A stretch of 64,000 nt of DNA from Candidatus Uhrbacteria bacterium CG10_big_fil_rev_8_21_14_0_10_50_16. Its GTDB lineage: Bacteria; Patescibacteriota; Patescibacteriia; UBA9934; UBA11717. The translations under genes and the position numbers were made by a program. The notes beneath the pieces are model-generated. The model was not told the origin of the DNA, ran no database searches, and saw only the letters and a list, made by a program, of their open reading frames with translations. The number at the start of each line of letters is the position of its first letter. Positions within the stretch are counted from its first letter, which is position 1. The stretch is from positions 246,153 to 310,152 of the forward strand of contig PCYM01000001.1 of assembly GCA_002774875.1 (NCBI GenBank), given 5' to 3'. Shown here in pieces: positions 5,872 to 26,789 of this stretch.

Positions 5872-6435
5872 TTATTTGCTTATTGTAATAACTTTTGATC
5901 CAAACACGTACACAATCTGTGTTGATCCTAGCTGCGTGACAAGCGCATCTTCCTTTGGATACGTGTGACCGTGCAAAAGATACCCGGGCGCTTTTTGCTC
6001 AACGTATTCTCGTAATCCCTTGTATCCTGCATGAACAGAATCATCTGGTTCATCATTTACCCCAAACGGAGGAGCATGACAGAGCATAACATCTACACGT
6101 GAAAAATCACGTAGTAATTCGATCGATTCCTCCTGCGTGTACATTTTGGCAGACGTGTTTTTGTAACGTACGCATCCTTCAAATCCCCCAAACGTAACCC
6201 CATCAATCTCCAACGTTCGCAGATGCATATTCTCAATTCCCAGTTCCGTCATGTACATTCCTGAGCAATGATTGCCATAGACGCCTAGTTTTGGGATATC
6301 GGTGATCTGCTCCAGCTCGTAAATTTGTTGTTGTTCCAAATCTCCAAGTGTCACGATTACGTCGATCGCGTGTTTTAAGAGGATCGTCTTGATAGGTTGA
6401 TCCGGCGGTCTGTCCGCAATGGCGAGTATTTGCAT
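5872..6435 (-). CDS. metallophosphoesterase (calcineurin-like phosphoesterase)
   Basis: Start probably at MQILAIAD. Metal-ligand motifs TLGDL, GNHC and HAPPFG are present. Confidence 0.7.
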   Translation of the reverse strand: MQILAIADRPPDQPIKTILLKHAIDVIVTLGDLEQQQIYELEQITDIPKLGVYGNHCSGMYMTELGIENMHLRTLEIDGVTFGGFEGCVRYKNTSAKMYTQEESIELLRDFSRVDVMLCHAPPFGVNDEPDDSVHAGYKGLREYVEQKAPGYLLHGHTYPKEDALVTQLGSTQIVYVFGSKVITISK

Positions 6436-6848: not shown

Positions 6849-7589
6849 CTACGTATACAGGCGCAAAAACCACGGCTCTAACCACAAAAATAGCACAGCA
6901 GCCATCATGAGGTATGCTCCCAGTGGAAGATGCATCTGCTTTTTAGCCCGCCCGTGCCCAATCAGCCAAAGAGCGTGCGTAGCCCCAATAACATATCCCA
7001 ATCCAATGGCAATCAACACCATCGGCCATCCAAACGCCGCGCCCAAGAGCACACCAATCCAGACATCCCCAAAACCGATCGCCCTGCCTTGGGTCACCAG
7101 ATATTGAAGCAAAAATACACCCCCACCAACAATCATCCCCATACCGGCATGATCTATTGTCAATGGCCAAGAAATTCCAAGAATCCCTATGGTCGCAATC
7201 CATGTTTCCGGGACAGCAACAAGTTGTTTCTCTGCGTCTAATCGAATCGCGTACAGCGCGTAGATCACCAAAACTGCTCCAAGCAACGCCGCTCTCAGAT
7301 CTGTAAATAGCAAACTCGCAACATAGGCGCCGCCCACAAACCCGATCAGTTCCGTCGTGAGATACCACCCAGAATAGATCTTCTTGCAACAGGCAGTCCT
7401 CCCGCGAGACAATACGTAACTCACGATAGGAATCAACACATACCACGGCAACACCTCTGCACAAACATCACAGATAGAACGTCCAGTTGTCCAAGAATGC
7501 CCCGTTCCTCGCCGCATAACGGCGCACGAGATAGCACTTGCAAGTGCTGCACCCACAACACCTCCAACCAATAGAATAAACCATGTCAT
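6849..7589 (-). CDS. type IV prepilin peptidase (A24 family)
   Basis: Polytopic membrane protein with the N-terminal CxxC...GRxxCC zinc-binding pattern (CDVCAEVL...SRGRTACC) typical of PilD-like enzymes. The start may be at 7646. Confidence 0.65.
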   Translation of the reverse strand: MTWFILLVGGVVGAALASAISCAVMRRGTGHSWTTGRSICDVCAEVLPWYVLIPIVSYVLSRGRTACCKKIYSGWYLTTELIGFVGGAYVASLLFTDLRAALLGAVLVIYALYAIRLDAEKQLVAVPETWIATIGILGISWPLTIDHAGMGMIVGGGVFLLQYLVTQGRAIGFGDVWIGVLLGAAFGWPMVLIAIGLGYVIGATHALWLIGHGRAKKQMHLPLGAYLMMAAVLFLWLEPWFLRLYT

Positions 7590-8036: not shown

Positions 8037-8630
8037 ATGTTTACCGGTATTATTAAGCAGCTTGGAACAATTACTTCCATGGATCGTCACGGCGATGATA
8101 TGCGACTCTGCGTAGAGATACACCCTGTGCCAGAGGTAGACATCGGCGCCAGCGTCTCCAACAGCGGTGTGTGTTTAACGGTGGTAGAAACAAGCAACTC
8201 GCGGCTTTCTTTTGACGTCATGACGCAAACCGTAAAGCTCACCTCGCTTGCCAATAAAAACGTTGGCGATCAACTCAATATTGAGACGTCTCTGCGTGTT
8301 GGAGATGAAATGGGCGGGCACTTTGTGTATGGACACGTGGATGGTGTGGCGCATGTGACACAGATTCAGCAAAAGGGCGACTCGGTTGTGATGACCATTC
8401 AACCGCCAGAGCACTTGATGCGCTACTTGGCACCGCAGGGATCCGTGGCCATCGACGGCGTGAGTCTCACAGTTGCCGATCAACGCGAACATGATTTTGA
8501 CGTGTCGCTTATTGATCACACTATGAAGGTCACGACACTCGGGCGTCTGACGGTCGGGGCGGCAGTCAATATAGAGGTAGATATGATGATGAAGTACTTA
8601 GATCGACTCACCAACGCAAAACCTGTATGA
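8037..8630 (+). CDS. riboflavin synthase alpha subunit
   Basis: Starts with the canonical MFTGII lumazine-binding repeat, about 197 aa. Lies 1 nt after the riboflavin kinase stop. Confidence 0.8.
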   Translation: MFTGIIKQLGTITSMDRHGDDMRLCVEIHPVPEVDIGASVSNSGVCLTVVETSNSRLSFDVMTQTVKLTSLANKNVGDQLNIETSLRVGDEMGGHFVYGHVDGVAHVTQIQQKGDSVVMTIQPPEHLMRYLAPQGSVAIDGVSLTVADQREHDFDVSLIDHTMKVTTLGRLTVGAAVNIEVDMMMKYLDRLTNAKPV

Positions 8631-9109
8631 GGCTCCCAATCAGAAAAGCAGAGCAAGAGCGGCTCGAGAACCAGATTGTAGATCATCACATGACGGCCGG
8701 TAAGTTAGAGCGGCTCAAAGCGGAACTTGCGCGTTTGCAGCGCGAGCATCCGGAGGCCAAGGAAGAGATGCAACGAACGGCGGAGGAAGGTGACTTTTCT
8801 GAGAACGCTGGGTACCAAGATGCAAAACGGCGTCTGCGTGGCATGAATTCTCGCATGCTCAGGTTGCAGGAACGGATTTCCCAGGCGGTTGTGATCAACG
8901 ACGGACCCACAGACGGCACGGTTGGCATCGGCTCCACCGTTGTTTTAAAAAATACACAGGGTGAGCGAACCTTTAGGATTGTCGGCGCGCAGGAGGTAGA
9001 CCTAAGCAAGGGTCGCATCTCGCACGTCTCGCCGCTTGGCGCAGCATTGTTGGGCAAACGCCCCGGTGACTCCGTAACCGTGGGTAGCACCGTTTGGGAG
9101 ATACAATAA
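8627..9109 (+). CDS. greA: transcription elongation factor GreA
   Basis: MTAGKLERLKAELARLQ aligns with the GreA N-terminal coiled-coil, and the length fits. ATGA overlap with the upstream gene. The true start may be the internal M at 8690. Confidence 0.8.
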   Translation: MRLPIRKAEQERLENQIVDHHMTAGKLERLKAELARLQREHPEAKEEMQRTAEEGDFSENAGYQDAKRRLRGMNSRMLRLQERISQAVVINDGPTDGTVGIGSTVVLKNTQGERTFRIVGAQEVDLSKGRISHVSPLGAALLGKRPGDSVTVGSTVWEIQ

Positions 9110-9225
9110 TTGATCACGTACCGATGCATCTACCCACCACTTACTGGTGGGTTTTTGTTTTTGTATCTCCTTGCCCTTCGATCCCCTCTAACACATTATA
9201 ATTTATCCCCATTTCAGATATCACT

Positions 9226-9245
9226 TTTGTCGTACCTACGACATT
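9226..9245. repeat. 20-mer TTTGTCGTACCTACGACATT (6-2-6 dyad), copy 1 of 2
   Basis: Identical 20-mer recurs at 49952-49971, with similar flanks over about 27 nt. Confidence 0.6.
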
Positions 9246-9265
9246 CTTGATACACGAAAAGGATC

Positions 9266-9294
9266 ACAAAAAAGAGCCCGAAGGCTCTTTTTTC
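9266..9294. terminator. bidirectional terminator between convergent greA and copA
   Basis: A-run, AGAGCC-CGAA-GGCTCT hairpin, T-run. Confidence 0.5.
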
Positions 9295-9488
9295 TTCCAT
9301 ACCCCATTTCCCATCAACCATCCCCCATCTACTATTCCTCGTTCCTCATCTTCCCCTAAAACATGATCATCACAAGCAACGTCGCGCCGATGCCGCACAC
9401 AAACCCAAATACAAAGCTTGTTTTGGACGGCATGCCAATTAAGAATTTCCACATAGAACCAGACGCACCTGATTTTTTTGACAACATA

Positions 9489-11630
9489 CTACAACCGTTT
9501 TAATCGCAATGAATTGAGAAGTACCGAGATAGAGGAAAACGCCATAGCACCTGCTGCGATCATTGGATTCAACAATCCTAGCGCCGCCAACGGGATACCT
9601 AACACATTATACAGGAACGCCCAAAATAGATTCTGTTTTATGGCGTTGAACGTCTTGCGCGAGATATAAATAGCCTCAGGAATCTTAGTTGGCTCGCCAC
9701 CCACCAGCACAATTTGACCAGACTCAATGGCAATATCCGTGCCGGTTCCCATCGCAATGCCAAGGTCCGCCTGGGTAAGAGCTGGTGCATCATTGATTCC
9801 ATCACCCACAAATGCCACACGGTTGCCTTTAGCCTGCTCCTCTTTTACGAGTCGTAGTTTATCCTCCGGCATTACCTCTGCGTGCACGTCATCAATTCCA
9901 ACGGCGTTTGCAATTGCGCGTGCCGTTTGTGTATTGTCTCCCGTGAGCATAACGGTGCGTGCGCCCATGGCCTGCAATTTTTTGATTGCCTGTTCTGCCC
10001 CTGCCTTTACAGGATCTGCAATTGCTACAAATCCCATCAATACACCCGCTTTAGAGACAAACACGACGGTCTTTGCCTCATGCTGCAGCACCTCTACCTG
10101 TTTTGTGACTATTGAATCGATCGCCTCAACCACATACGTCGCACGGCCAACACGCACGGTTTCTCCGTTGATTTCACCTTGGATTCCCTTTCCTGTTTCC
10201 GTTTGGACATTTTGAACCGGTGGCAACCCAGCCGTCCCCGCGTGTCGCACGATTGCATCTGCCAACGGATGCTCCGATAGTTTCTCCACAGCCGCCGCCA
10301 ACAAAATAAGCTCAACGTCTGATCCTTTTAGAGCAACCACGTCTGTAACGGCAGGTTTTCCCATAGTAATGGTTCCCGTTTTATCCAACATCACCACGTC
10401 CACCACCTTTCCTCGCTCCAACGCCTCACCCGACTTAATAAAGATACCGCTCTTTGCCGCACGACCCGTCCCTACTAAAATCGCCGTCGGCGTCGCTAAC
10501 CCAAGCGCGCACGGACAGGCGATCACCAGAACCGCAACCGCCGGAATCAACGCTGTTTGCAGATCACCGCTGATCAAGTACCACACAACAAACGTCACAA
10601 GCGCAATGCCAATCACAATAGGCACAAACACACCCGAAATCTGGTCTGCCAGCTTCTGCATAGGGGCCTTTTGCGCTTGTGCATCTTTGACGAGTTGTAC
10701 GATTTGCGACAACACCGATTCCCCCGCCAGCTTAGTCATCTTCACGTGGAGCGGTCCTTTTTGATTCACCGTTGCACCATACACCTGTGCACCGATCGTT
10801 TTCTTAATAGGCACACTCTCTCCTGTCAGCATGGACTCATCTATGGTTGATGTCCCTTCCGTCACTTCTCCGTCCAACGGAATCTTCTCACCTGGTCGTA
10901 CTAATACCACATCGCCAATCGCCAGTGTCTCTACATCCACATCTCTAAACGACCCGTCCTTCAACACAAGATGCGCCTGTTTTGCCCCGAGTTCGAGTAG
11001 CTTTTGAATCGCCTCGCCTGCACGCCCCTTACTCAACGCTTCAAAATACCGACCAATCAAAATCAACGCCGCAATCACCGCCGCCGTTTCAAAGTAGGCT
11101 TCTCCACTTTGTGTAATGGACCACACACTGAATACGGTCGCCACTAATGTCCCCATGGAAATAAGTGTGTCCATGTTGGCACGGCCTTTTTTGAGTTGAT
11201 TCCACGCGGTCACATGAAACCCGAGCCCCGGCCAGAAAATCACCACCAGCGTAAGCACCGCCTGAATCGCCAGACTCGACGGAATCCCAAACACCGCACC
11301 TGGCAACGAAATCTTAAACATCGCCAACACAAACACTGGAAGCGCCAATATCACGGCCGTCAGTGCCTTCTTCTTTGCCGCAGCACCCGTCTCATGCATA
11401 TGCTCATGTCCTTCCATTCCCTCCATCTTCTCGTTACGTACCGTATATCCCTCTTTTTTTACAATCTCCTCTAGAGCAGCACGATCCAAATCCGTCTCAA
11501 CCACTGCCTCTTCCGTTGCATAGTTGACGTTGGCGTTCGTTACCTCTGGCAACGCCTTAAACGCCCCTTCAATATTGACCGCGCAACTCGCACAATGCAT
11601 TCCTTCTATCTTGAGCGTATGTTTTGTCAT
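9489..11630 (-). CDS. copA: copper-translocating P1B-type ATPase
   Basis: N-terminal HMA motif GMHCASC, membrane CPC motif, DKTGT phosphorylation site, GDGINDAP hinge. Confidence 0.85.
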
Positions 11631-18160: not shown

Positions 18161-18163
18161 TCA

Positions 18164-18208
18164 TGGAGCCACGATCGGGAATCGAACCCGAGACCTCATC
18201 CTTACCAT
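18164..18208 (-). repeat. attR-like partial tRNA-Thr(GGU) copy (tRNA positions 32-76, intron-less)
   Basis: 45 nt identical, apart from one T-loop base, to the 3' part of the tRNA gene at 26306-26345, and extending through an uninterrupted ATGGTAA anticodon loop. Confidence 0.7.
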
Positions 18209-18413
18209 GAAGTTCCCATAGAAGATAATGGAGAAGAGACACTGTTTACGGAGTAAAACCACGATTTTTATCTCTAGTACCTGTCTTCTATGTAGACCAC
18301 TTTATTACCTGCAACAATAGCTCTGTTGAAAGGTTCTGATGTTCGTAATAATGTGTTAATTTTGGTAAATTGTATAGGTATTATATAGTAAAAAATTGTA
18401 TTACTCAAGCTTT

Positions 18414-18911
18414 TTACAAATTATATTTATGTAAAAATGAATCGGTTATTTCTTCCCCAAGCGTTATTCCCAGTATGGTCTTTGTATCATCTGGAGTATC
18501 TGTAGATCTTCGTGCTCGTACTTTAAGCTGGTCTAATTCTCTCATTCCATTTTCTGGTAAACGTGCCATTTTTGCAAAACTTTCGCGGCCACCTCGTCGC
18601 TTTTTCTGTATATCTTCGACACTTAAAATTTCGACACGCTTTACATCTATATACGTTGTCGTTTTCGGAAAATGTCGTGTCTGTACATCACACCATTCTT
18701 TTGGTTCAACAATTTTCGTCGTCCACCTTTTGCAGGAGCTTCCCCGTGAGGTAAGTACAATAAACGGGAAGATAGCTAACTCATCAGCTATCACCGTATT
18801 GGCTAGTTTGTATTTTACCTTCACATCACCCGTGCTTTCTTCCCTTGAGAACTCATCACGATATACCCAGCCACGCTCAACAATATTGGCCATGAGTATG
18901 GAGAGTTGCAT
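18414..18911 (-). CDS. hypothetical protein downstream of the Panacea-domain gene (candidate toxin partner)
   Basis: 165 aa ORF starting 5 nt after the upstream gene. No recognisable family. Confidence 0.35.
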   Translation of the reverse strand: MQLSILMANIVERGWVYRDEFSREESTGDVKVKYKLANTVIADELAIFPFIVLTSRGSSCKRWTTKIVEPKEWCDVQTRHFPKTTTYIDVKRVEILSVEDIQKKRRGGRESFAKMARLPENGMRELDQLKVRARRSTDTPDDTKTILGITLGEEITDSFLHKYNL

Positions 18912-18916
18912 GCTAT

Positions 18917-19393
18917 CTACGCTTCAAGATTAAGAACCTCGTTGATGTGTTCATTACCACCAAGAGTTGCACCCAAAGCTTGCATAGGTGCAGTCTTGTA
19001 CGCAATGTCTGTTAGAGCCTTTGCACCGTAACCCTTTAGTGACTCCATGATTTCGTTGAACATAGCTTCCTGGACTTCCGTAATAGAAAAATCGGTATCA
19101 GTAGGTTCTTCGTTAAAATTATATACAATGTATTCCTTCCCGTCAGAAGTATATTCCGTCGTCGCAATGGCGACACCGTCGTCTATCAAAGCCTTCAAAT
19201 CATGATATATCGCTTCGTCAAATGGACCATAGGTATAGCGTCGATACACATAGCCAAAATAAACATCCTGTTCTTTTTTTCTAGCAATGAGATCCAGAAG
19301 GTACGCTAACTTCATCAAAACCGTTACCGTGGGTCGCTCGTGTCTTTGAATTAGTTGAGCGATTAATTTTTGGCGGTTTGATAATTCTGGCAT
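18917..19393 (-). CDS. Panacea/SocA-like (DUF4065) antitoxin-type protein
   Basis: LMKLAYLLDL...YTYGPFDEAIYHDL resembles the Panacea domain core. Called from memory of the family, not from a search. Confidence 0.45.
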   Translation of the reverse strand: MPELSNRQKLIAQLIQRHERPTVTVLMKLAYLLDLIARKKEQDVYFGYVYRRYTYGPFDEAIYHDLKALIDDGVAIATTEYTSDGKEYIVYNFNEEPTDTDFSITEVQEAMFNEIMESLKGYGAKALTDIAYKTAPMQALGATLGGNEHINEVLNLEA

Positions 19394-19447: not shown

Positions 19448-20407
19448 TCACCCAACATACTTCCCATTCCCAAGCTTCTCCACGCTATCACGTAGGGCCT
19501 CTGTAGTGACCTGACGGCCGTATTTTAGCGTCATACGCGGGTCTACGTGTCCCATGAGTTGTTGTACGTGAGAAAGCGAAACACCTTGTGCGTAGAGGTT
19601 CGCAGCGTACGTGTGCCTACAGCGGTGCACAAAGAAATTCACTCCGCTCTTTTGTTTGATCAGGTCGGCCAAGTGTTTTAACCCATGCTTACCAAGCGGA
19701 CGGTTTCTTTTTGAAGACACAAACAGTGCATTCGTCGTGTACGCAATAGGATGATCCTCTCTTGCTCGTAGATACCGCTGAAGCTCGACCATAAGTTCCC
19801 TCTGCAAGGGAATAGTCCGTGTCAATTTGGATTTAGACGTCTTGCCTTCCACAGTAAGTGTCCGTTGTTCCATATTTACGCTCTCCAATGTAAATCCGAG
19901 AAGTTCATTACGTCGTATACCCGTTAGAATGAGTAGTTTTAGTATAGTGTAATTTCTACAGCGAAGAAATTCCGTTGCCCACTCATAATCGTACTGACAA
20001 AACTGCAACAATTTATGTATCTCTGTTTCTGTAAGGTAACGTCTATCCACATACTCTACATGCGGTTTGCTGATTGTTGGCAAGGGATTCTCCTTAATTT
20101 GTCGTGTGTCTACCAACCATCGCATGAACTTCCCCCACTTACTCCTGTATGTTAGAAGCGTGGAGTTTTTTACACCCTTATGTTGTTTTCCGTTGTTGAG
20201 GGTTCGTGTTCGCGTTTGGAGCGTCTCAAAAAGTCCGATCCAAAAACTACGTTCTTGCACAGATTTTAAATCAGCATCAGGAGCGAGCTTAAAAAGTAAC
20301 GAGAGAGCGGCACGATACCCCTCTAACGTATCTGGGCGAGCACCTGCTGTATATTGTTGTTCGCGCAAAAAATCGTCGAACAAGACCTGTAATTCATTCT
20401 GTTGCAT
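19448..20407 (-). CDS. tyrosine-type site-specific recombinase/integrase
   Basis: C-terminal HRCRHTYA...GH...Y catalytic motifs, 319 aa. Confidence 0.85.
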   Translation of the reverse strand: MQQNELQVLFDDFLREQQYTAGARPDTLEGYRAALSLLFKLAPDADLKSVQERSFWIGLFETLQTRTRTLNNGKQHKGVKNSTLLTYRSKWGKFMRWLVDTRQIKENPLPTISKPHVEYVDRRYLTETEIHKLLQFCQYDYEWATEFLRCRNYTILKLLILTGIRRNELLGFTLESVNMEQRTLTVEGKTSKSKLTRTIPLQRELMVELQRYLRAREDHPIAYTTNALFVSSKRNRPLGKHGLKHLADLIKQKSGVNFFVHRCRHTYAANLYAQGVSLSHVQQLMGHVDPRMTLKYGRQVTTEALRDSVEKLGNGKYVG

Positions 20408-22281: not shown

Positions 22282-22608
22282 CTACGACTTCAACACGTTA
22301 ATAATTGCGACGAGCGTTGGTCCACCAAAGAAAATCACGAATGGAAGAAATACACGTACGCGATGAAGCGTTTTTTCCGAGACACGATGCCGAATAAGTG
22401 GCAAGTAGTAGTCTGTTAAGGAAAGTGCAAACAAAGCCATTATAAACGCATTTTGAGCGTTCTCAGACGTAGGTTCTGATAGCAGAGTTAGCCCACCAAA
22501 AAACAACAGGATTCCGATCACGTTTCCAACTTTCGCTCCCAACGAACGTTGCTGTGTCTTGTTTGGCGTCGAGCCTGAATCATCAGCCTTTGTTTTAACG
22601 TTTGTCAT
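22282..22608 (-). CDS. small membrane protein
   Basis: 108 aa with three predicted TM helices. Starts 2 nt after the upstream gene. Confidence 0.35.
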   Translation of the reverse strand: MTNVKTKADDSGSTPNKTQQRSLGAKVGNVIGILLFFGGLTLLSEPTSENAQNAFIMALFALSLTDYYLPLIRHRVSEKTLHRVRVFLPFVIFFGGPTLVAIINVLKS

Positions 22609-22886: not shown

Positions 22887-23519
22887 ATGCCTCCATCCTA
22901 TATATCTATGATAGATAAGAACACTCTTAGTTCCTTCGTAAAAGAAGTCGATCATGCTTACCAACAGTTTTCTGTTTGGAAATACTGCAACAACCAATAC
23001 GCAGAACATTGTGATAACTTTGAGGAAAAGCTAGTACAGCACTGGGCAACGTCCGTGGAAGAATTCATGCAAAACAACCGTACATTTCAAAACTTTTGGG
23101 AGGTTACCTTACCGTCGCTACAACATGCTTGGATGATATCTGTTTGTAGATTAATGGATCCTGCTTTCTTTCAAAACGATAAGACCAAGCCAAACCTTTC
23201 CTTGGATTACATTATTGAACATCTTGATAACGATGTCCTGATCAACCAGATCCGTTTATCTGCAAAGACACACAGCAGTTACACCAAACATATGAAAACA
23301 TGGCGAGACAAATACCTTGCCCATAATGATTTTAATTTTGCGGAGCAAACTATTGAGGCGGGATATGAAGACTACATAGAGTTCCTTGTCGAAACCATTA
23401 AAAACATCAAGAAACAATACCCACACCTTAAGGACTGCAATAACGTCGACCTTATTTGGTTGGATCGTGTTTCTGAAACAGGTGTAAAAGAGGTCTTCGA
23501 AAAGCTTTCTGTTGATTAA
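22887..23519 (+). CDS. hypothetical protein with an Rx5H HEPN-like motif (candidate Abi-type protein)
   Basis: 210 aa helical protein with WRDKYLAHND near the C-terminal half. Tentative. Confidence 0.35.
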   Translation: MPPSYISMIDKNTLSSFVKEVDHAYQQFSVWKYCNNQYAEHCDNFEEKLVQHWATSVEEFMQNNRTFQNFWEVTLPSLQHAWMISVCRLMDPAFFQNDKTKPNLSLDYIIEHLDNDVLINQIRLSAKTHSSYTKHMKTWRDKYLAHNDFNFAEQTIEAGYEDYIEFLVETIKNIKKQYPHLKDCNNVDLIWLDRVSETGVKEVFEKLSVD

Positions 23520-23532
23520 ACGCTGGGCACCA

Positions 23533-23554
23533 AACTTATAATGCGTTATAAGTC
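23533..23554. repeat. 22-bp recombinase-type site (9-bp inverted arms around a 4-bp core), left copy
   Basis: AACTTATAA-TGCG-TTATAAGTC. A 21-nt exact match, in inverted orientation, to 25353-25373. Confidence 0.65.
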
Positions 23555-23718: not shown

Positions 23719-24705
23719 CTACGATACCAATGCTCTTCTTAGATTTTTAAAGTGAATAGTCTCACTTTGGTCCTTCGGGAACATCTCCAACAAGGTGTAC
23801 GGATAATATCCAGCAAGCCCACTGATAATAGTCGCGCCATATTTCACATCTTCTTCAACACGTTTTTTCCAATCTTTGGGCTGTGTCGAACTAATGACAT
23901 AGATACGTAATCCATGGTTTATTACACCGTCTGCAAGAACGGCGTTTATGTGTTCATCCCCGAAACCATAGCCTATAATAAGCATTTTTTTACTGTCTTC
24001 TTGAACAGCTGAGGAAAATAGATCGAAATACGCTTTTAGTAAAGGTTCAGATGTAATCGTGTGTACTTTATTCTTCCCAATAACCATCCTTGTGGACCCG
24101 TCAGAAGCAACCCAACCATAGGAACCATGAAGCTTAATATAAACTGGTCCAGCATGACCTCTGATGGCGGTTTCGACAAGATTGTTAACTTTATCTTCCG
24201 TTGGTAATACTAAGAAATCAGACTCCTCCAATGATGTCGTGCTCAGCCCGCCCTTTTGTGCATGAAATCCAGGCACCCCTGGGCATACACTTCCGCTCCT
24301 GCGTTCCATGAACAGGTCTTGATTCAGTGTGAAGAATACGCTAATTTTTTCTCTGCCACTATTGAATAAGCTGAGTAATCTATTTAATGTATACCAACAT
24401 ACAGGATGTGCTGAATCGTCTCGGAAAACCCAGTCCTTAGTGGCTATGTCTAGATTCTTATAAGCCTCTCTAACGGCACTCTGTATTCTCTCTTTATCCT
24501 CACAAGATACGGACTTGTCATCATTCACACGGCTGTACACGGATTCGTAGTCAAAGTCATCACACAGTAAACTCCTTAATTTCTCTGATGATTGAACATC
24601 TGGGTGATTGTATATTTGAGACCACATCTCTGAAGCCAAAAAACCACCAAAGTTTTTAGTAAACCCCGCCCCAGTCAGCAATATTAGGTTATGGTAATTA
24701 GACAT
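23719..24705 (-). CDS. SIR2-like domain protein (SIR2_2/defence-type, standalone)
   Basis: LLTGAGFTKNFGG Rossmann start, FTLNQD (the TTNYD-like motif), IKLHGS, IGYGFGDEHI. 328 aa. Overlaps the upstream gene by 8 nt. Confidence 0.65.
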   Translation of the reverse strand: MSNYHNLILLTGAGFTKNFGGFLASEMWSQIYNHPDVQSSEKLRSLLCDDFDYESVYSRVNDDKSVSCEDKERIQSAVREAYKNLDIATKDWVFRDDSAHPVCWYTLNRLLSLFNSGREKISVFFTLNQDLFMERRSGSVCPGVPGFHAQKGGLSTTSLEESDFLVLPTEDKVNNLVETAIRGHAGPVYIKLHGSYGWVASDGSTRMVIGKNKVHTITSEPLLKAYFDLFSSAVQEDSKKMLIIGYGFGDEHINAVLADGVINHGLRIYVISSTQPKDWKKRVEEDVKYGATIISGLAGYYPYTLLEMFPKDQSETIHFKNLRRALVS

Positions 24706-25384
24706 CTTTACCTTCCTCCTCTGGGGATGTCTCTTCTAGCCCCTTAGTCACCATGGACGGCAGAACGAACAGAAACTCTGCAAGAGCTTGAGCAAAGTTG
24801 ACAGTCAACTTTGCATCTTGGTAGCTAGGCATCATTGCATCATCGTCAGCATGTCGTTCTTCATTGGCCTCTAATCGTACTTGATGCGCCCAAGTGGACA
24901 TATCTTGGGTTATAAGATGCTTACCTGCCGCCTCATCTATTCGGCTGTATAATGAACCGTCTACGTAACCTTTTTCTTTCAACATCGCATCAACCGAACT
25001 TGCGGCAAGCATGATAGCACCAGAAGGCGCATGGAGACATTCTAATGCCTGCAAGAGGTAGGCCCTAGGCTTCTCTGGTATCACTTCATCTACACTCATG
25101 ACATTTGGATAGATTTCCAAAACAGCGCCCCCGGGATGTCTACTTGAACACACAACCACACCACCACAACGCTTGCAAACATACAGACCCCAATAACGTC
25201 GATTGTCACCTTTGTGATCGGCTGAGCCAACCCCATGCTCCAGTACCAAACTTGGGGTGTCTGTGGTGCAATGTGGACATCGATCCAGTTCAAGATTTTG
25301 GGATAAATTTGGCATACAATAGAAATTTGTGTAGATATTACCACATTTCTCGGACTTATAACGCATTATAAGTCGAGCTATCAT
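24698..25384 (-). CDS. zinc-ribbon + DUF4145-like (HEPN-related) protein
   Basis: N-terminal CPHC...CKRC ribbon. C-terminal helical domain with LKEKG...LYSRIDEA...AHQVRLEANEERH, resembling the DUF4145 R..(G/A)N...H signature. The start codon lies inside the 22-bp site. Confidence 0.5.
   Translation of the reverse strand: MIARLIMRYKSEKCGNIYTNFYCMPNLSQNLELDRCPHCTTDTPSLVLEHGVGSADHKGDNRRYWGLYVCKRCGGVVVCSSRHPGGAVLEIYPNVMSVDEVIPEKPRAYLLQALECLHAPSGAIMLAASSVDAMLKEKGYVDGSLYSRIDEAAGKHLITQDMSTWAHQVRLEANEERHADDDAMMPSYQDAKLTVNFAQALAEFLFVLPSMVTKGLEETSPEEEGKDV
25353..25374. repeat. 22-bp recombinase-type site, right copy (inverted)
   Basis: GACTTATAA-CGCA-TTATAAGTC. It encodes the last codons plus stop of the integrase and the first codons (MRYKS) of the DUF4145-like gene. 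Confidence 0.65.
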
Positions 25385-26273
25385 CCAATGGATGTTTGTT
25401 AATCTGTGTGCGCAGGTGTTCTGCTGAAGCGGCGAGGTAAATGCTTGTCGTTTTTAGGTCGGCATGACCTAGCATTTTTGAGAGAGAGTAAATGTCACAT
25501 CCGCCCTCTAGCATCATCGTAGCGAAGCTGTGACGTAGCTTGTGCACGCTGAATTTTATTCCTGACGCTTCCTTCATCTTCTCAACCAACCTCTTCATAC
25601 CTGTCCCCGTGAATCCAACGTTACGGTTAAGGGAGGCAAAGAACTCTGGGCAGGTTTTGTGTAGCCGTTTACGTTCTACAAGATAACGATCTAGACTCTC
25701 CTGTAATGCTGAGCAAATCGGCACTACGCGATCCTTTGACCCTTTGCCCTGTCGAATAAAGATAGAGCGGTTCTCTACATCTATATCGTTGTACTGCAGG
25801 TTAAGCAATTCCTGTTTTCGCAGTCCTGCATATAAGAATGTAGCAAAAATCGCATGATTGCGATACTTAAGGTACTTGTAAGGATAAGGGAAGTTCATAG
25901 CCGTTTCCAATATCCGCATCGCCTCTTGTTTGGTGAGCTTAGGAGGCAAACGCCGTTCAAGTTTTGGCATCTCCATTCCATCCGCAGGGTTCTCTTGCAT
26001 ATACCCCTGTTCCACACACCACCTGAAAAAGACGACAAAGCTCTTGTGGTACGTGATGAAGCTGTTAGCCGACCATTTGCGCGTTGTCCTACCATAGAGC
26101 ATGTAGCGCTCAAAACAAGGCTTAGTGACCTGCTGAAGCGTTTCTATGCCTTCTGTACGTATAAAGAATCCCACGGCGTTCTTATATCGCTGAATAGTCG
26201 TTGGTCTGTACCCACGAATAAACGAAGAGTGGTCACAAAATTGTCGCAACGCTGTTTGTATGTACATAAACAA
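25356..26273 (-). CDS. tyrosine-type integrase adjacent to the tRNA-Thr attachment site
   Basis: HKLRHSFAT...GH...Y catalytic box, 305 aa. A terminator hairpin separates it from the tRNA 3' end. Confidence 0.85.
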   Translation of the reverse strand: MFMYIQTALRQFCDHSSFIRGYRPTTIQRYKNAVGFFIRTEGIETLQQVTKPCFERYMLYGRTTRKWSANSFITYHKSFVVFFRWCVEQGYMQENPADGMEMPKLERRLPPKLTKQEAMRILETAMNFPYPYKYLKYRNHAIFATFLYAGLRKQELLNLQYNDIDVENRSIFIRQGKGSKDRVVPICSALQESLDRYLVERKRLHKTCPEFFASLNRNVGFTGTGMKRLVEKMKEASGIKFSVHKLRHSFATMMLEGGCDIYSLSKMLGHADLKTTSIYLAASAEHLRTQINKHPLDDSSTYNAL

Positions 26274-26305
26274 AAAATCCTGATGGTGAACATCAGAACC
26301 TTTCG

Positions 26306-26589
26306 TGGAGCCACGATCGGGATTCGAACCCGAGACCTCATCCTTCGCTTACACCCTAATTTATTTCGTCACGTATATAGGGACTAGACTGTATATTAGG
26401 CATATTCCCTAAGGAACTTAGCCCCCCTTGTCAGTCGTTCGGGCGTTTCTTCGATTGACGCCACGGTCTTACCCTTGTGACAGGGCTTTAACCGTTATTC
26501 GGGATTCACTCTACCGTTTCCAGTGGGGTGGGCTACTTTCTCGTATGAAAGTGACCATGGATGCGCTCTACCGACTGAGCTATCGCGGC
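26306..26589 (-). tRNA. tRNA-Thr (anticodon GGU) interrupted by a ~208-nt intron between positions 36 and 37
   Basis: Exon 1 at 26589-26554 (GCCGCGATAGCTCAGTCGGTAGAGCGCATCCATGGT). Exon 2 at 26345-26306 (AAGGATGAGGTCTCGGGTTCGAATCCCGATCGTGGCTCCA). Joined they give a canonical 76-nt cloverleaf with a G4-U69 wobble. The intron-less version of the same 3' part is present at 18164-18208. Confidence 0.6.
26346..26553 (-). ncRNA. putative group I-type self-splicing intron in the tRNA-Thr anticodon loop
   Basis: The 5' exon ends in U and the intron ends in G. A UAUACAGUCUAGUCC segment resembles the group I S/P7 region. No ORF inside. Confidence 0.35.
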
Positions 26590-26751
26590 TTAATTGTTTT
26601 CTTGGTATATGGTGAAAGCACCATCATTGTAATACAGAGGTGTCCCCTTCGGGGACTACTTTAGTAAAGGAAGTGGTATCTATCTCTCACACAACAGCCG
26701 AAACGGCTGTAGTCTTAGGGATAATACTCTTCTTAACTATAGACCTCTTTA

Positions 26752-26789
26752 TTACCATGGATGCGCTCTACCGACTGAGCTATCGCGGC
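26752..26789 (-). repeat. second copy of tRNA-Thr(GGU) positions 1-38 (pseudo-tRNA 5' fragment)
   Basis: A 36-nt exact repeat of exon 1 plus AA. It is followed by degenerate tRNA-like sequence and a 164-nt hairpin-rich spacer. Confidence 0.55.

Follow-up and report, generated by a model that had tools for sequence, protein, structure and literature searches.

A RAZR-like zinc-ribbon HEPN gene and a stand-alone SIR2 gene behind the integrase of a Candidatus Uhrbacteria island: probably two single-gene defences rather than a two-part system

The defence protein PD-T7-4 of E. coli UMB1727 came from a functional selection and was listed as 'Zn finger-HEPN', encoded by a single coding sequence whose coordinates (34-694) give a length of 219 aa; HHpred placed its Zn ribbon at about residues 13-56 and a DUF4145 domain at 87-175, and its gene frequently overlaps an integrase gene (Vassallo 2022, PMC9519451). 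It has since been renamed RAZR (ring-activated zinc-finger RNase) and described as a single-protein abortive-infection RNase. Its zinc-finger domain, which is the most variable part and sets the specificity, binds ring-shaped phage proteins (the T7 portal and SECphi27 Gp77); the protein forms a 24-mer ring and cleaves single-stranded RNA, and both R146 and H154 are essential (Nature 2026, PMC13017515). Here we analyse a 64,000-nt stretch of DNA (the window, positions 246,153 to 310,152 of contig PCYM01000001.1) from a Candidatus Uhrbacteria bacterium, a member of the candidate phyla radiation (CPR). It carries, directly behind an integrase gene, an upstream gene for a Zn-ribbon-DUF4145 protein that overlaps a downstream gene for a stand-alone SIR2 protein. 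The original prediction, made from the sequence alone, suggested that the two may be a sensor-effector pair that matches no named system. We find that the two families are not conserved partners and that the upstream protein has the architecture of RAZR. The locus is best read, with good though not full confidence, as two autonomous single-gene abortive-infection (Abi) defences stacked behind the integrase in one transcription unit, and not as a new two-part system.

Both proteins are identical to COV06_01450 and COV06_01455 of Candidatus Uhrbacteria bacterium CG10_big_fil_rev_8_21_14_0_10. The SIR2 gene lies on the minus strand at 23719-24705 and encodes a 328-aa stand-alone protein of the SIR2_2 (SIRim) type, a predicted NAD+ hydrolase. 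The longest open reading frame (ORF) of the upstream gene, on the same strand, runs over 24698-25384 (228 aa) and overlaps the integrase gene. Its true start is probably M24 (24698-25315, 205 aa), because NCBI annotates M24 and the homologues, at 195-212 aa, extend over 81-90% of the long ORF; this corrects the long-ORF coordinates and places the start 40 nt past the integrase stop. Both ORFs were present at 23719-25384 as predicted, with the 8-nt overlap (24698-24705, minus strand, ATGTCTAA) in which the upstream stop meets the SIR2 start. With homologues at E < 1e-60 numbering in the hundreds to thousands for each, both are established as genuine genes and not chance ORFs. No terminator-like element was found between the upstream gene and SIR2, and hairpins are present 3' of the SIR2 stop. 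A scan for a sigma-70-like promoter upstream of the pair found none; it gave fewer matches overall than shuffled sequence and is uninformative for a CPR genome.

The upstream protein resembles RAZR in its whole layout. It shares the single-gene architecture, the N-terminal Cys4 ribbon, the conserved linker and the C-terminal DUF4145/HEPN domain, which Pfam places at about residues 87-176 (28.8 bits versus a cut-off of 23.1), the coordinates in RAZR being 87-175; the lengths are 205 and 219 aa. In the ribbon (C13-x2-C16 ... C47-x2-C50; M24 numbering is used here), C13, C16 and C50 are invariant and C47 nearly so among 26 homologues, and in the R147-x2-A-N151-x3-H155 motif R147, N151 and H155 are invariant in the same set, bearing out the CxxC...CxxC ribbon and the DUF4145 R..(A/G)N...H signature that had been proposed. 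The Arg...His dyad has the same 7-residue spacing in both proteins (R147/H155 here, R146/H154 in RAZR). The AlphaFold2 (AF2) model has a beta-rich N-terminal domain, and the ribbon is more variable than the HEPN domain (entropy per region 1.7-2.1 bits versus 0.94 bits), the Zn ribbon being the family's most variable part, as reported for RAZR. Both genes also adjoin an integrase on a mobile element. Unlike RAZR, the upstream gene overlaps a downstream SIR2 gene and its host is a CPR bacterium. The two proteins are set apart by distant sequence, and the ring-protein activation, the 24-mer and the RNase activity are those of RAZR and would apply here by analogy.

A homology chain connects the two proteins. 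The upstream protein matches a Rhodococcus plasmid DUF4145 protein (27.6% identity over 87% of its length, E 2e-8), and hhalign of the family profile against this same protein gives a probability of 97.8% (E 9e-13, 180 columns). The next link is a match of this Rhodococcus protein, along almost all of its length, to the PADLOC PD-T7-4 model (E 2.8e-7). On the basis of this intermediate and the common architecture, we call the upstream gene RAZR-like and regard it as a distant relative. Two further relatives of the upstream protein, L209 and L210, match the PD-T7-4 model weakly (E 0.019 and 0.085). E. coli RAZR itself was also hunted: neither tblastn against phages nor blastn against E. coli genomes with a homologue from a prophage returned anything, and the plasmid search returned Rhodococcus, Vibrio and other distant matches alone. 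In the predicted IMG/VR prophage contigs L192, L194, L195, L197, L198, L202 and L203, the Zn-ribbon-DUF4145 gene is the outermost one (first or last), at the prophage boundary. Such a boundary is a typical place of accessory defence genes.

The downstream protein carries a single recognizable domain, SIR2_2 (Pfam, 31.8 bits versus a cut-off of 24.5), in agreement with the earlier statement that it has no fused SLOG, TIR, HerA or STAND partner. The defence-type hallmarks that had been noted (GAG, TLNQD, LHGS) are intact: the alignment of 30 homologues shows no variation at T11-G12-A13-G14, at N128 and D130 of TLNQD or at H193 of KLHGS, and phmmer aligns FTLNQDL and KLHGS with FTTNYDL and KLHGS of the E. 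coli SIR2 from SIR2-HerA. When the AF2 model (pLDDT 90) was searched with Foldseek, the SIR2 of SIR2-HerA ranked first (E 5e-9, TM ~0.56), followed by SPARSA and DSR2; human sirtuins appeared only at E > 1e-2, and the sequence has no CxxC pairs able to form the sirtuin zinc module. The family is large (2,997 matches at E <= 1e-3) and uniform in size, nearly all members having 322-341 aa, and it extends over CPR phyla, Desulfobacterota, Nitrospirota, Gammaproteobacteria, Planctomycetota and archaea. By sequence comparison it belongs to the SIR2_2/SIRim branch, outside every named system, and the window protein is most likely a minimal NAD+-hydrolysing defence enzyme, as predicted from its homologues. 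Members of the SIR2_2/SIRim clade, taken together, are enriched in the neighbourhood of defence systems (bioRxiv 10.1101/2024.09.18.613514). Two extended homologues were also noticed. P0093 (494 aa; 49% identity over 88% of the query) adds C-terminal PF22722 and Mrr_cat (PF04471) nuclease domains, and P0092 has 519 aa. SIR2-Mrr nuclease fusions are typical of conflict systems.

PADLOC and NCBIfam gave no match for the upstream protein and, for SIR2, partial matches to generic SIR2 models alone, the NCBIfam SIR2_antiphage model NF042942 scoring 36.6 bits against a cut-off of 500. The proposal that the locus corresponds to no named system is therefore upheld for SIR2 and falls for the upstream gene, whose architecture is that of PD-T7-4/RAZR (PMC9519451, PMC13017515).

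To what extent the two genes travel together was assessed with family alignments of the SIR2 and the Zn-ribbon-DUF4145 proteins, for each of which related loci were fetched, taking the best 80 per scan of each family out of ~3,000 SIR2 and ~1,000 Zn-ribbon-DUF4145 homologues. At 80 GTDB species-representative loci with SIR2 relatives (27-53% identity), the Zn-ribbon-DUF4145 profile matched none of the ORFs within 6 kb at E <= 10. Conversely, no SIR2 match at E <= 1e-3 was seen at 80 metagenome loci with relatives of the upstream protein (50-57% identity). Co-occurrence was likewise absent from 15 and 34 viral or prophage loci and from five loci obtained by exact-protein look-up. When the loci with strong matches are counted, a Zn-ribbon-DUF4145 gene lies within 5-6 kb at 0/89 SIR2 loci, and a SIR2 gene was seen at 0/117 Zn-ribbon-DUF4145 loci. 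Every contig with the identical SIR2 does show the arrangement of the window, but these contigs come from one population and are not independent.

Neither gene has another recurrent partner, as judged by BLAST clustering of all neighbours within 3-3.5 kb. The commonest neighbours of SIR2 in this clustering are a serine recombinase (7 loci) and a DNA methyltransferase (6 loci), and those of the Zn-ribbon-DUF4145 gene are a phenylalanyl-tRNA synthetase gene (4 loci, at least 2 of them near-identical) and an integrase (3 loci). A Pfam scan of the immediate neighbours gave a similar picture: the top family next to SIR2 was Peptidase_M78 upstream (4/82) and resolvase/recombinase downstream (3/84), and next to the Zn-ribbon-DUF4145 gene it was an integrase upstream (4/86) and a family with a count of 2/94 downstream. 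The remaining neighbours are scattered over restriction-modification, Abi_alpha, Shedu, TIR, RhuM, transposases and housekeeping genes.

A closer view is provided by the nearest relatives of the island. The window has two tyrosine integrase genes on the minus strand, int1 next to the pair (25356-26273, Pfam Phage_integrase, 113.7 bits) and int2 (19448-20407), which is 25% identical to int1. The closest SIR2 homologues, P0003 (58%) and P0002 (60%), are encoded 33-48 nt 3' of a tyrosine integrase gene with no gene between. At locus L161 the order is integrase, SIR2 (58% identical), other cargo and a second integrase (9035-9997), and the DUF4145 gene is missing. As its integrases are 67.7% identical to int1 and 40% identical to int2, respectively, L161 is a related (sister) element; SIR2 thus exists, and presumably works, without the partner in the nearest known relative. 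The presence of both integrases in L161 also means that the two-integrase layout is conserved and not a tandem accident. No homology was found among the genes 3' of SIR2 in the closest elements, or between these and the AbiU2 gene of the window. With no co-occurrence at 89 and 117 loci, a sister element that lacks the DUF4145 gene, and variable neighbours, the notion of a dedicated DUF4145 and SIR2 sensor-effector pair is not supported.

Under the favoured reading, an 8.1-kb element inserted in a tRNA-Thr-like gene would carry, directly 3' of its integrase, two independent single-protein defences that are probably co-transcribed. By analogy with RAZR, the variable Cys4 zinc ribbon of the upstream protein would recognise a phage structural protein, and this binding would rearrange pre-formed oligomers of the protein. 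The C-terminal DUF4145/HEPN domains, with R147 and H155, would then come together as active RNase sites, and their cleavage of cellular RNA would bring translation to a halt. SIR2, once triggered, would hydrolyse NAD+ through N128 and H193 and so starve the infected cell. The genes, their domains, catalytic motifs and folds, the island ends and the lack of a conserved partnership come from the analysis itself; the RNase and NADase activities, like the triggering by phage, the oligomerisation and the outcome as abortive infection, are inferred from homologues.

The two genes are surrounded by palindromic sites. A perfect 21-nt inverted repeat has one arm at 25353-25373, which contains the integrase stop together with the codons just before it, and the other at 23534-23554, 165 nt beyond the SIR2 stop. 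Each arm is itself palindromic (ACTTATAA-N4-TTATAAGT), and the 20-nt palindrome pattern has 2 matches, versus 0.01 expected by chance. No further copies above chance were found in the window, and the palindrome is absent from 216 other fetched loci. L161 has three related palindromes, CCTATA-N6-TATAGG, at 6008-6025, 7171-7188 and 8521-8538, which separate SIR2, a two-gene block and a further gene; the copy just 3' of SIR2 is identical to the downstream arm of the window at 16/20 positions, and one symmetric base-pair substitution preserves the palindrome. These palindromes may serve in recombination, as operators or as hairpins at transcript ends, and with them comes a small probability that the two genes are one cassette.

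Several points weigh against two independent defences. The PADLOC PD-T7-4 model (PDLC04109) does not match the upstream protein even at E <= 1, which makes the link to RAZR an indirect one. Searches of the PDB by sequence, with the upstream protein or its family profile, gave nothing significant, and the RAZR structures (9Y9C, 9Y6U) were absent from these results and from those of the PDB Foldseek search. To our knowledge, no autonomous trigger mechanism has been described for a 330-aa SIR2, and the defence role of the stand-alone SIR2 family is itself suggested by its homologues. The count of co-occurrence refers to the best 80 loci per scan. The perfect 21-nt repeat encloses exactly the upstream gene and SIR2, as would fit a single cassette, and the 8-nt overlap with no terminator between makes it likely that the two genes are co-transcribed. 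Besides RAZR there is also DS-38, a validated single-gene defence that likewise combines a Zn-finger with HEPN (DefensePredictor, bioRxiv 10.1101/2025.01.08.631726); reportedly, DS-38 and PD-T7-4 have different Zn-fingers, and the likeness of DS-38 to the upstream protein is one of description only. Some of these points would be accommodated by a lineage-specific two-gene system, perhaps a recently joined cassette, with the Zn-ribbon-HEPN protein as the sensor of infection, either licensing the SIR2 NADase or working together with it. The overlap, the missing terminator and the repeat around just these genes agree with it, as does the identical arrangement in all contigs with the exact SIR2, though these represent one population. 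Moreover, defence SIR2 enzymes are usually paired with a sensor, as in Thoeris, DSR, SIR2-HerA and SPARSA. We nevertheless hold such a system to be unlikely, since the two genes co-occur at 0/206 related loci and L161, the sister element, possesses SIR2 but no Zn-ribbon-DUF4145 gene. RAZR-type proteins are, in addition, complete sensor and effector units (PMC13017515), and this self-sufficiency, together with the intact HEPN residues, argues that the upstream protein is not a degenerate sensor. The overlap, too, lies in the tail of the upstream protein (residues 193-205), which is the least conserved segment of its family, and it may stem from juxtaposition in a compact genome.

The alternative that only the upstream gene is defensive, and that SIR2 serves as an NAD-dependent enzyme of cargo or housekeeping type (deacylase or ADP-ribosyltransferase) or stabilises the element as an addiction toxin, appears to us quite unlikely. 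It draws on the fact that the function of the family is read from sequence comparison, on the partial and sub-threshold PADLOC and NCBIfam matches (36.6 bits versus 500 for NF042942) and on the position of the gene directly 3' of the integrase in the three closest elements, a position also typical of element-maintenance genes. It is countered by the SIR2_2 type of the protein with no CxxC pairs for the zinc module of canonical deacetylases, by a fold far nearer to defence SIR2 (E 5e-9) than to sirtuins (E > 1e-2), by a patchy spread over bacterial phyla and archaea in variable neighbourhoods rich in mobile elements, and by the enrichment of the SIR2_2/SIRim clade near defence systems (bioRxiv 10.1101/2024.09.18.613514). 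The repeats could also be taken to delimit a 1.8-kb block that a recombinase inverts or mobilises, both genes being phase-variable. The perfect 21-nt inverted palindromic sites at both ends, one of them over the integrase stop, would suit this, and so would the homologous palindromes that split the gene modules of L161 with a palindrome-keeping symmetric substitution. This possibility is very remote: the opposite orientation of the block was not found among the contigs returned for the identical SIR2, the sites are absent from 216 other loci, and AT-rich hairpins could be no more than operators or transcript-end structures. A bolder combination, which we also consider improbable, is that the palindromes (20-24 nt) mark a recombinase-serviced cassette array in CPR elements that shuffles compact defence genes behind the integrase; in this element one such cassette would have brought a RAZR-like RNase together with a minimal SIR2 as a double Abi module under joint regulation, its two parts possibly cooperating, and the SIR2 family of ~330 aa would represent an autonomous NADase defence not described before.

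The island that carries the two genes is 8.1 kb long and is bounded by a direct repeat of the 3' half of a tRNA. The left attachment site, attL (26303-26345, minus strand), corresponds to the 3' half of a tRNA-Thr(GGU)-like gene that lies at the boundary of the island, and attR (18161-18203, minus strand), at the far end, is a 43-nt copy that is 95% identical to it. The 43-nt repeat and a G+C content of 40-46% over 18-27 kb, versus ~50% in most of the flanking sequence, confirm a tRNA-bounded island, and with int1, the HEPN_AbiU2 gene and the SocA/Panacea gene described below, the proposed setting beside an integrase and among other immunity-type genes was recovered in full. The tRNA gene itself (about 26306-26589, minus strand) has its anticodon loop split by a 208-nt intervening sequence, which is why ARAGORN misses it by default and calls it with the intron option; no Rfam match to a group I intron was found in the intervening sequence. 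An exact second copy of the 36-nt tRNA 5' half, without a 3' half of its own, is present 200 nt upstream (26754-26789). The stretch 3' of this orphan half (26722-26756) is 74% identical to 18275-18309, about 70 nt before attR, a hint that the island has split either the original tRNA gene or an earlier integration. Just inside the island ends, beside the att repeats, is a perfect 17-nt inverted repeat (18328-18344 and 26288-26304), whose arms may be integrase binding sites.

Among the other cargo, the gene for a HEPN_AbiU2 protein (22887-23519, plus strand; Pfam HEPN_AbiU2, 43.9 bits) is convergent with SIR2; placed outside the 21-nt inverted repeat, it adds another single-gene Abi-type module to the island. 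At the far end, a gene for a 158-aa SocA/Panacea-domain protein is followed by an adjacent 165-aa ORF without a family match (18414-19393, minus strand), and the two look like a Panacea-type toxin-antitoxin pair. A DUF4236-TPR protein is also encoded on the island. Inside it we noted, in addition, a LOOT RNA (Rfam RF03000; 22727-22845, minus strand; 69.1 bits versus a gathering score of 46.4) directly 5' of a gene (22282-22608) whose 108-aa product is a predicted membrane protein.

No new two-gene immune system comes out of this analysis. It does extend RAZR-type zinc-ribbon HEPN RNases, so far characterised only in Enterobacteria, by distant relatives on integrase-borne islands of CPR bacteria, in many other phyla and in prophages. 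It also draws attention to a large family of minimal SIR2-only proteins (~3,000 homologues in bacteria and archaea) without a partner, which raises the question of how a bare NADase is silenced and triggered. More generally, gene overlap and a shared island are poor evidence of a functional pair unless co-occurrence is checked.

Among the known SIR2 systems, SIR2-HerA (Nezha; PDB 8sub, 8j4u) is the best match of the window protein in both sequence and fold (phmmer E 9e-6; Foldseek E 5e-9). The two have in common the GAG Rossmann start, the Asn of TTNYD/TLNQD, the His of KLHGS and a C-terminal GYGFxDxHIN region. The window SIR2 is ~70 residues shorter, with a TM-score of ~0.56 and an identity of 16-19%, and a Pfam scan found no HerA-type ATPase partner in the window or among the immediate neighbours at 82-84 SIR2-family loci. 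DSR1/DSR2, ThsA of Thoeris, the SIR2-APAZ of SPARSA and Avs5 share with it the SIR2_2-type NADase domain and the occurrence at mobile or defence loci. They differ in what accompanies this domain. In DSR1/DSR2, SIR2 is fused with a large sensor to a total of ~1000 aa, whereas the window protein has 328 aa and no C-terminal sensor. In Thoeris, ThsA has a SLOG/Macro domain and works alongside the TIR protein ThsB, whereas the window SIR2 has no SLOG/Macro domain and the island no TIR gene. Neither the short prokaryotic Argonaute of SPARSA nor the STAND ATPase of Avs5 accompanies the window SIR2, according to the domain, PADLOC and neighbour scans. FAM118A/B and other single-domain SIR2_2 ('SIRim') proteins, like the window SIR2, consist of SIR2_2 only and have no zinc module; FAM118 is a vertebrate clade, unlike the bacterial protein here, and the likeness is by description alone. 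The filaments formed by FAM118B show that self-assembly can be a means of regulating a SIR2_2 protein (PMC12700824), and it is a guess, by analogy with these filaments and with other defence SIR2 proteins, that the bare SIR2 of the island might be regulated in the same way.

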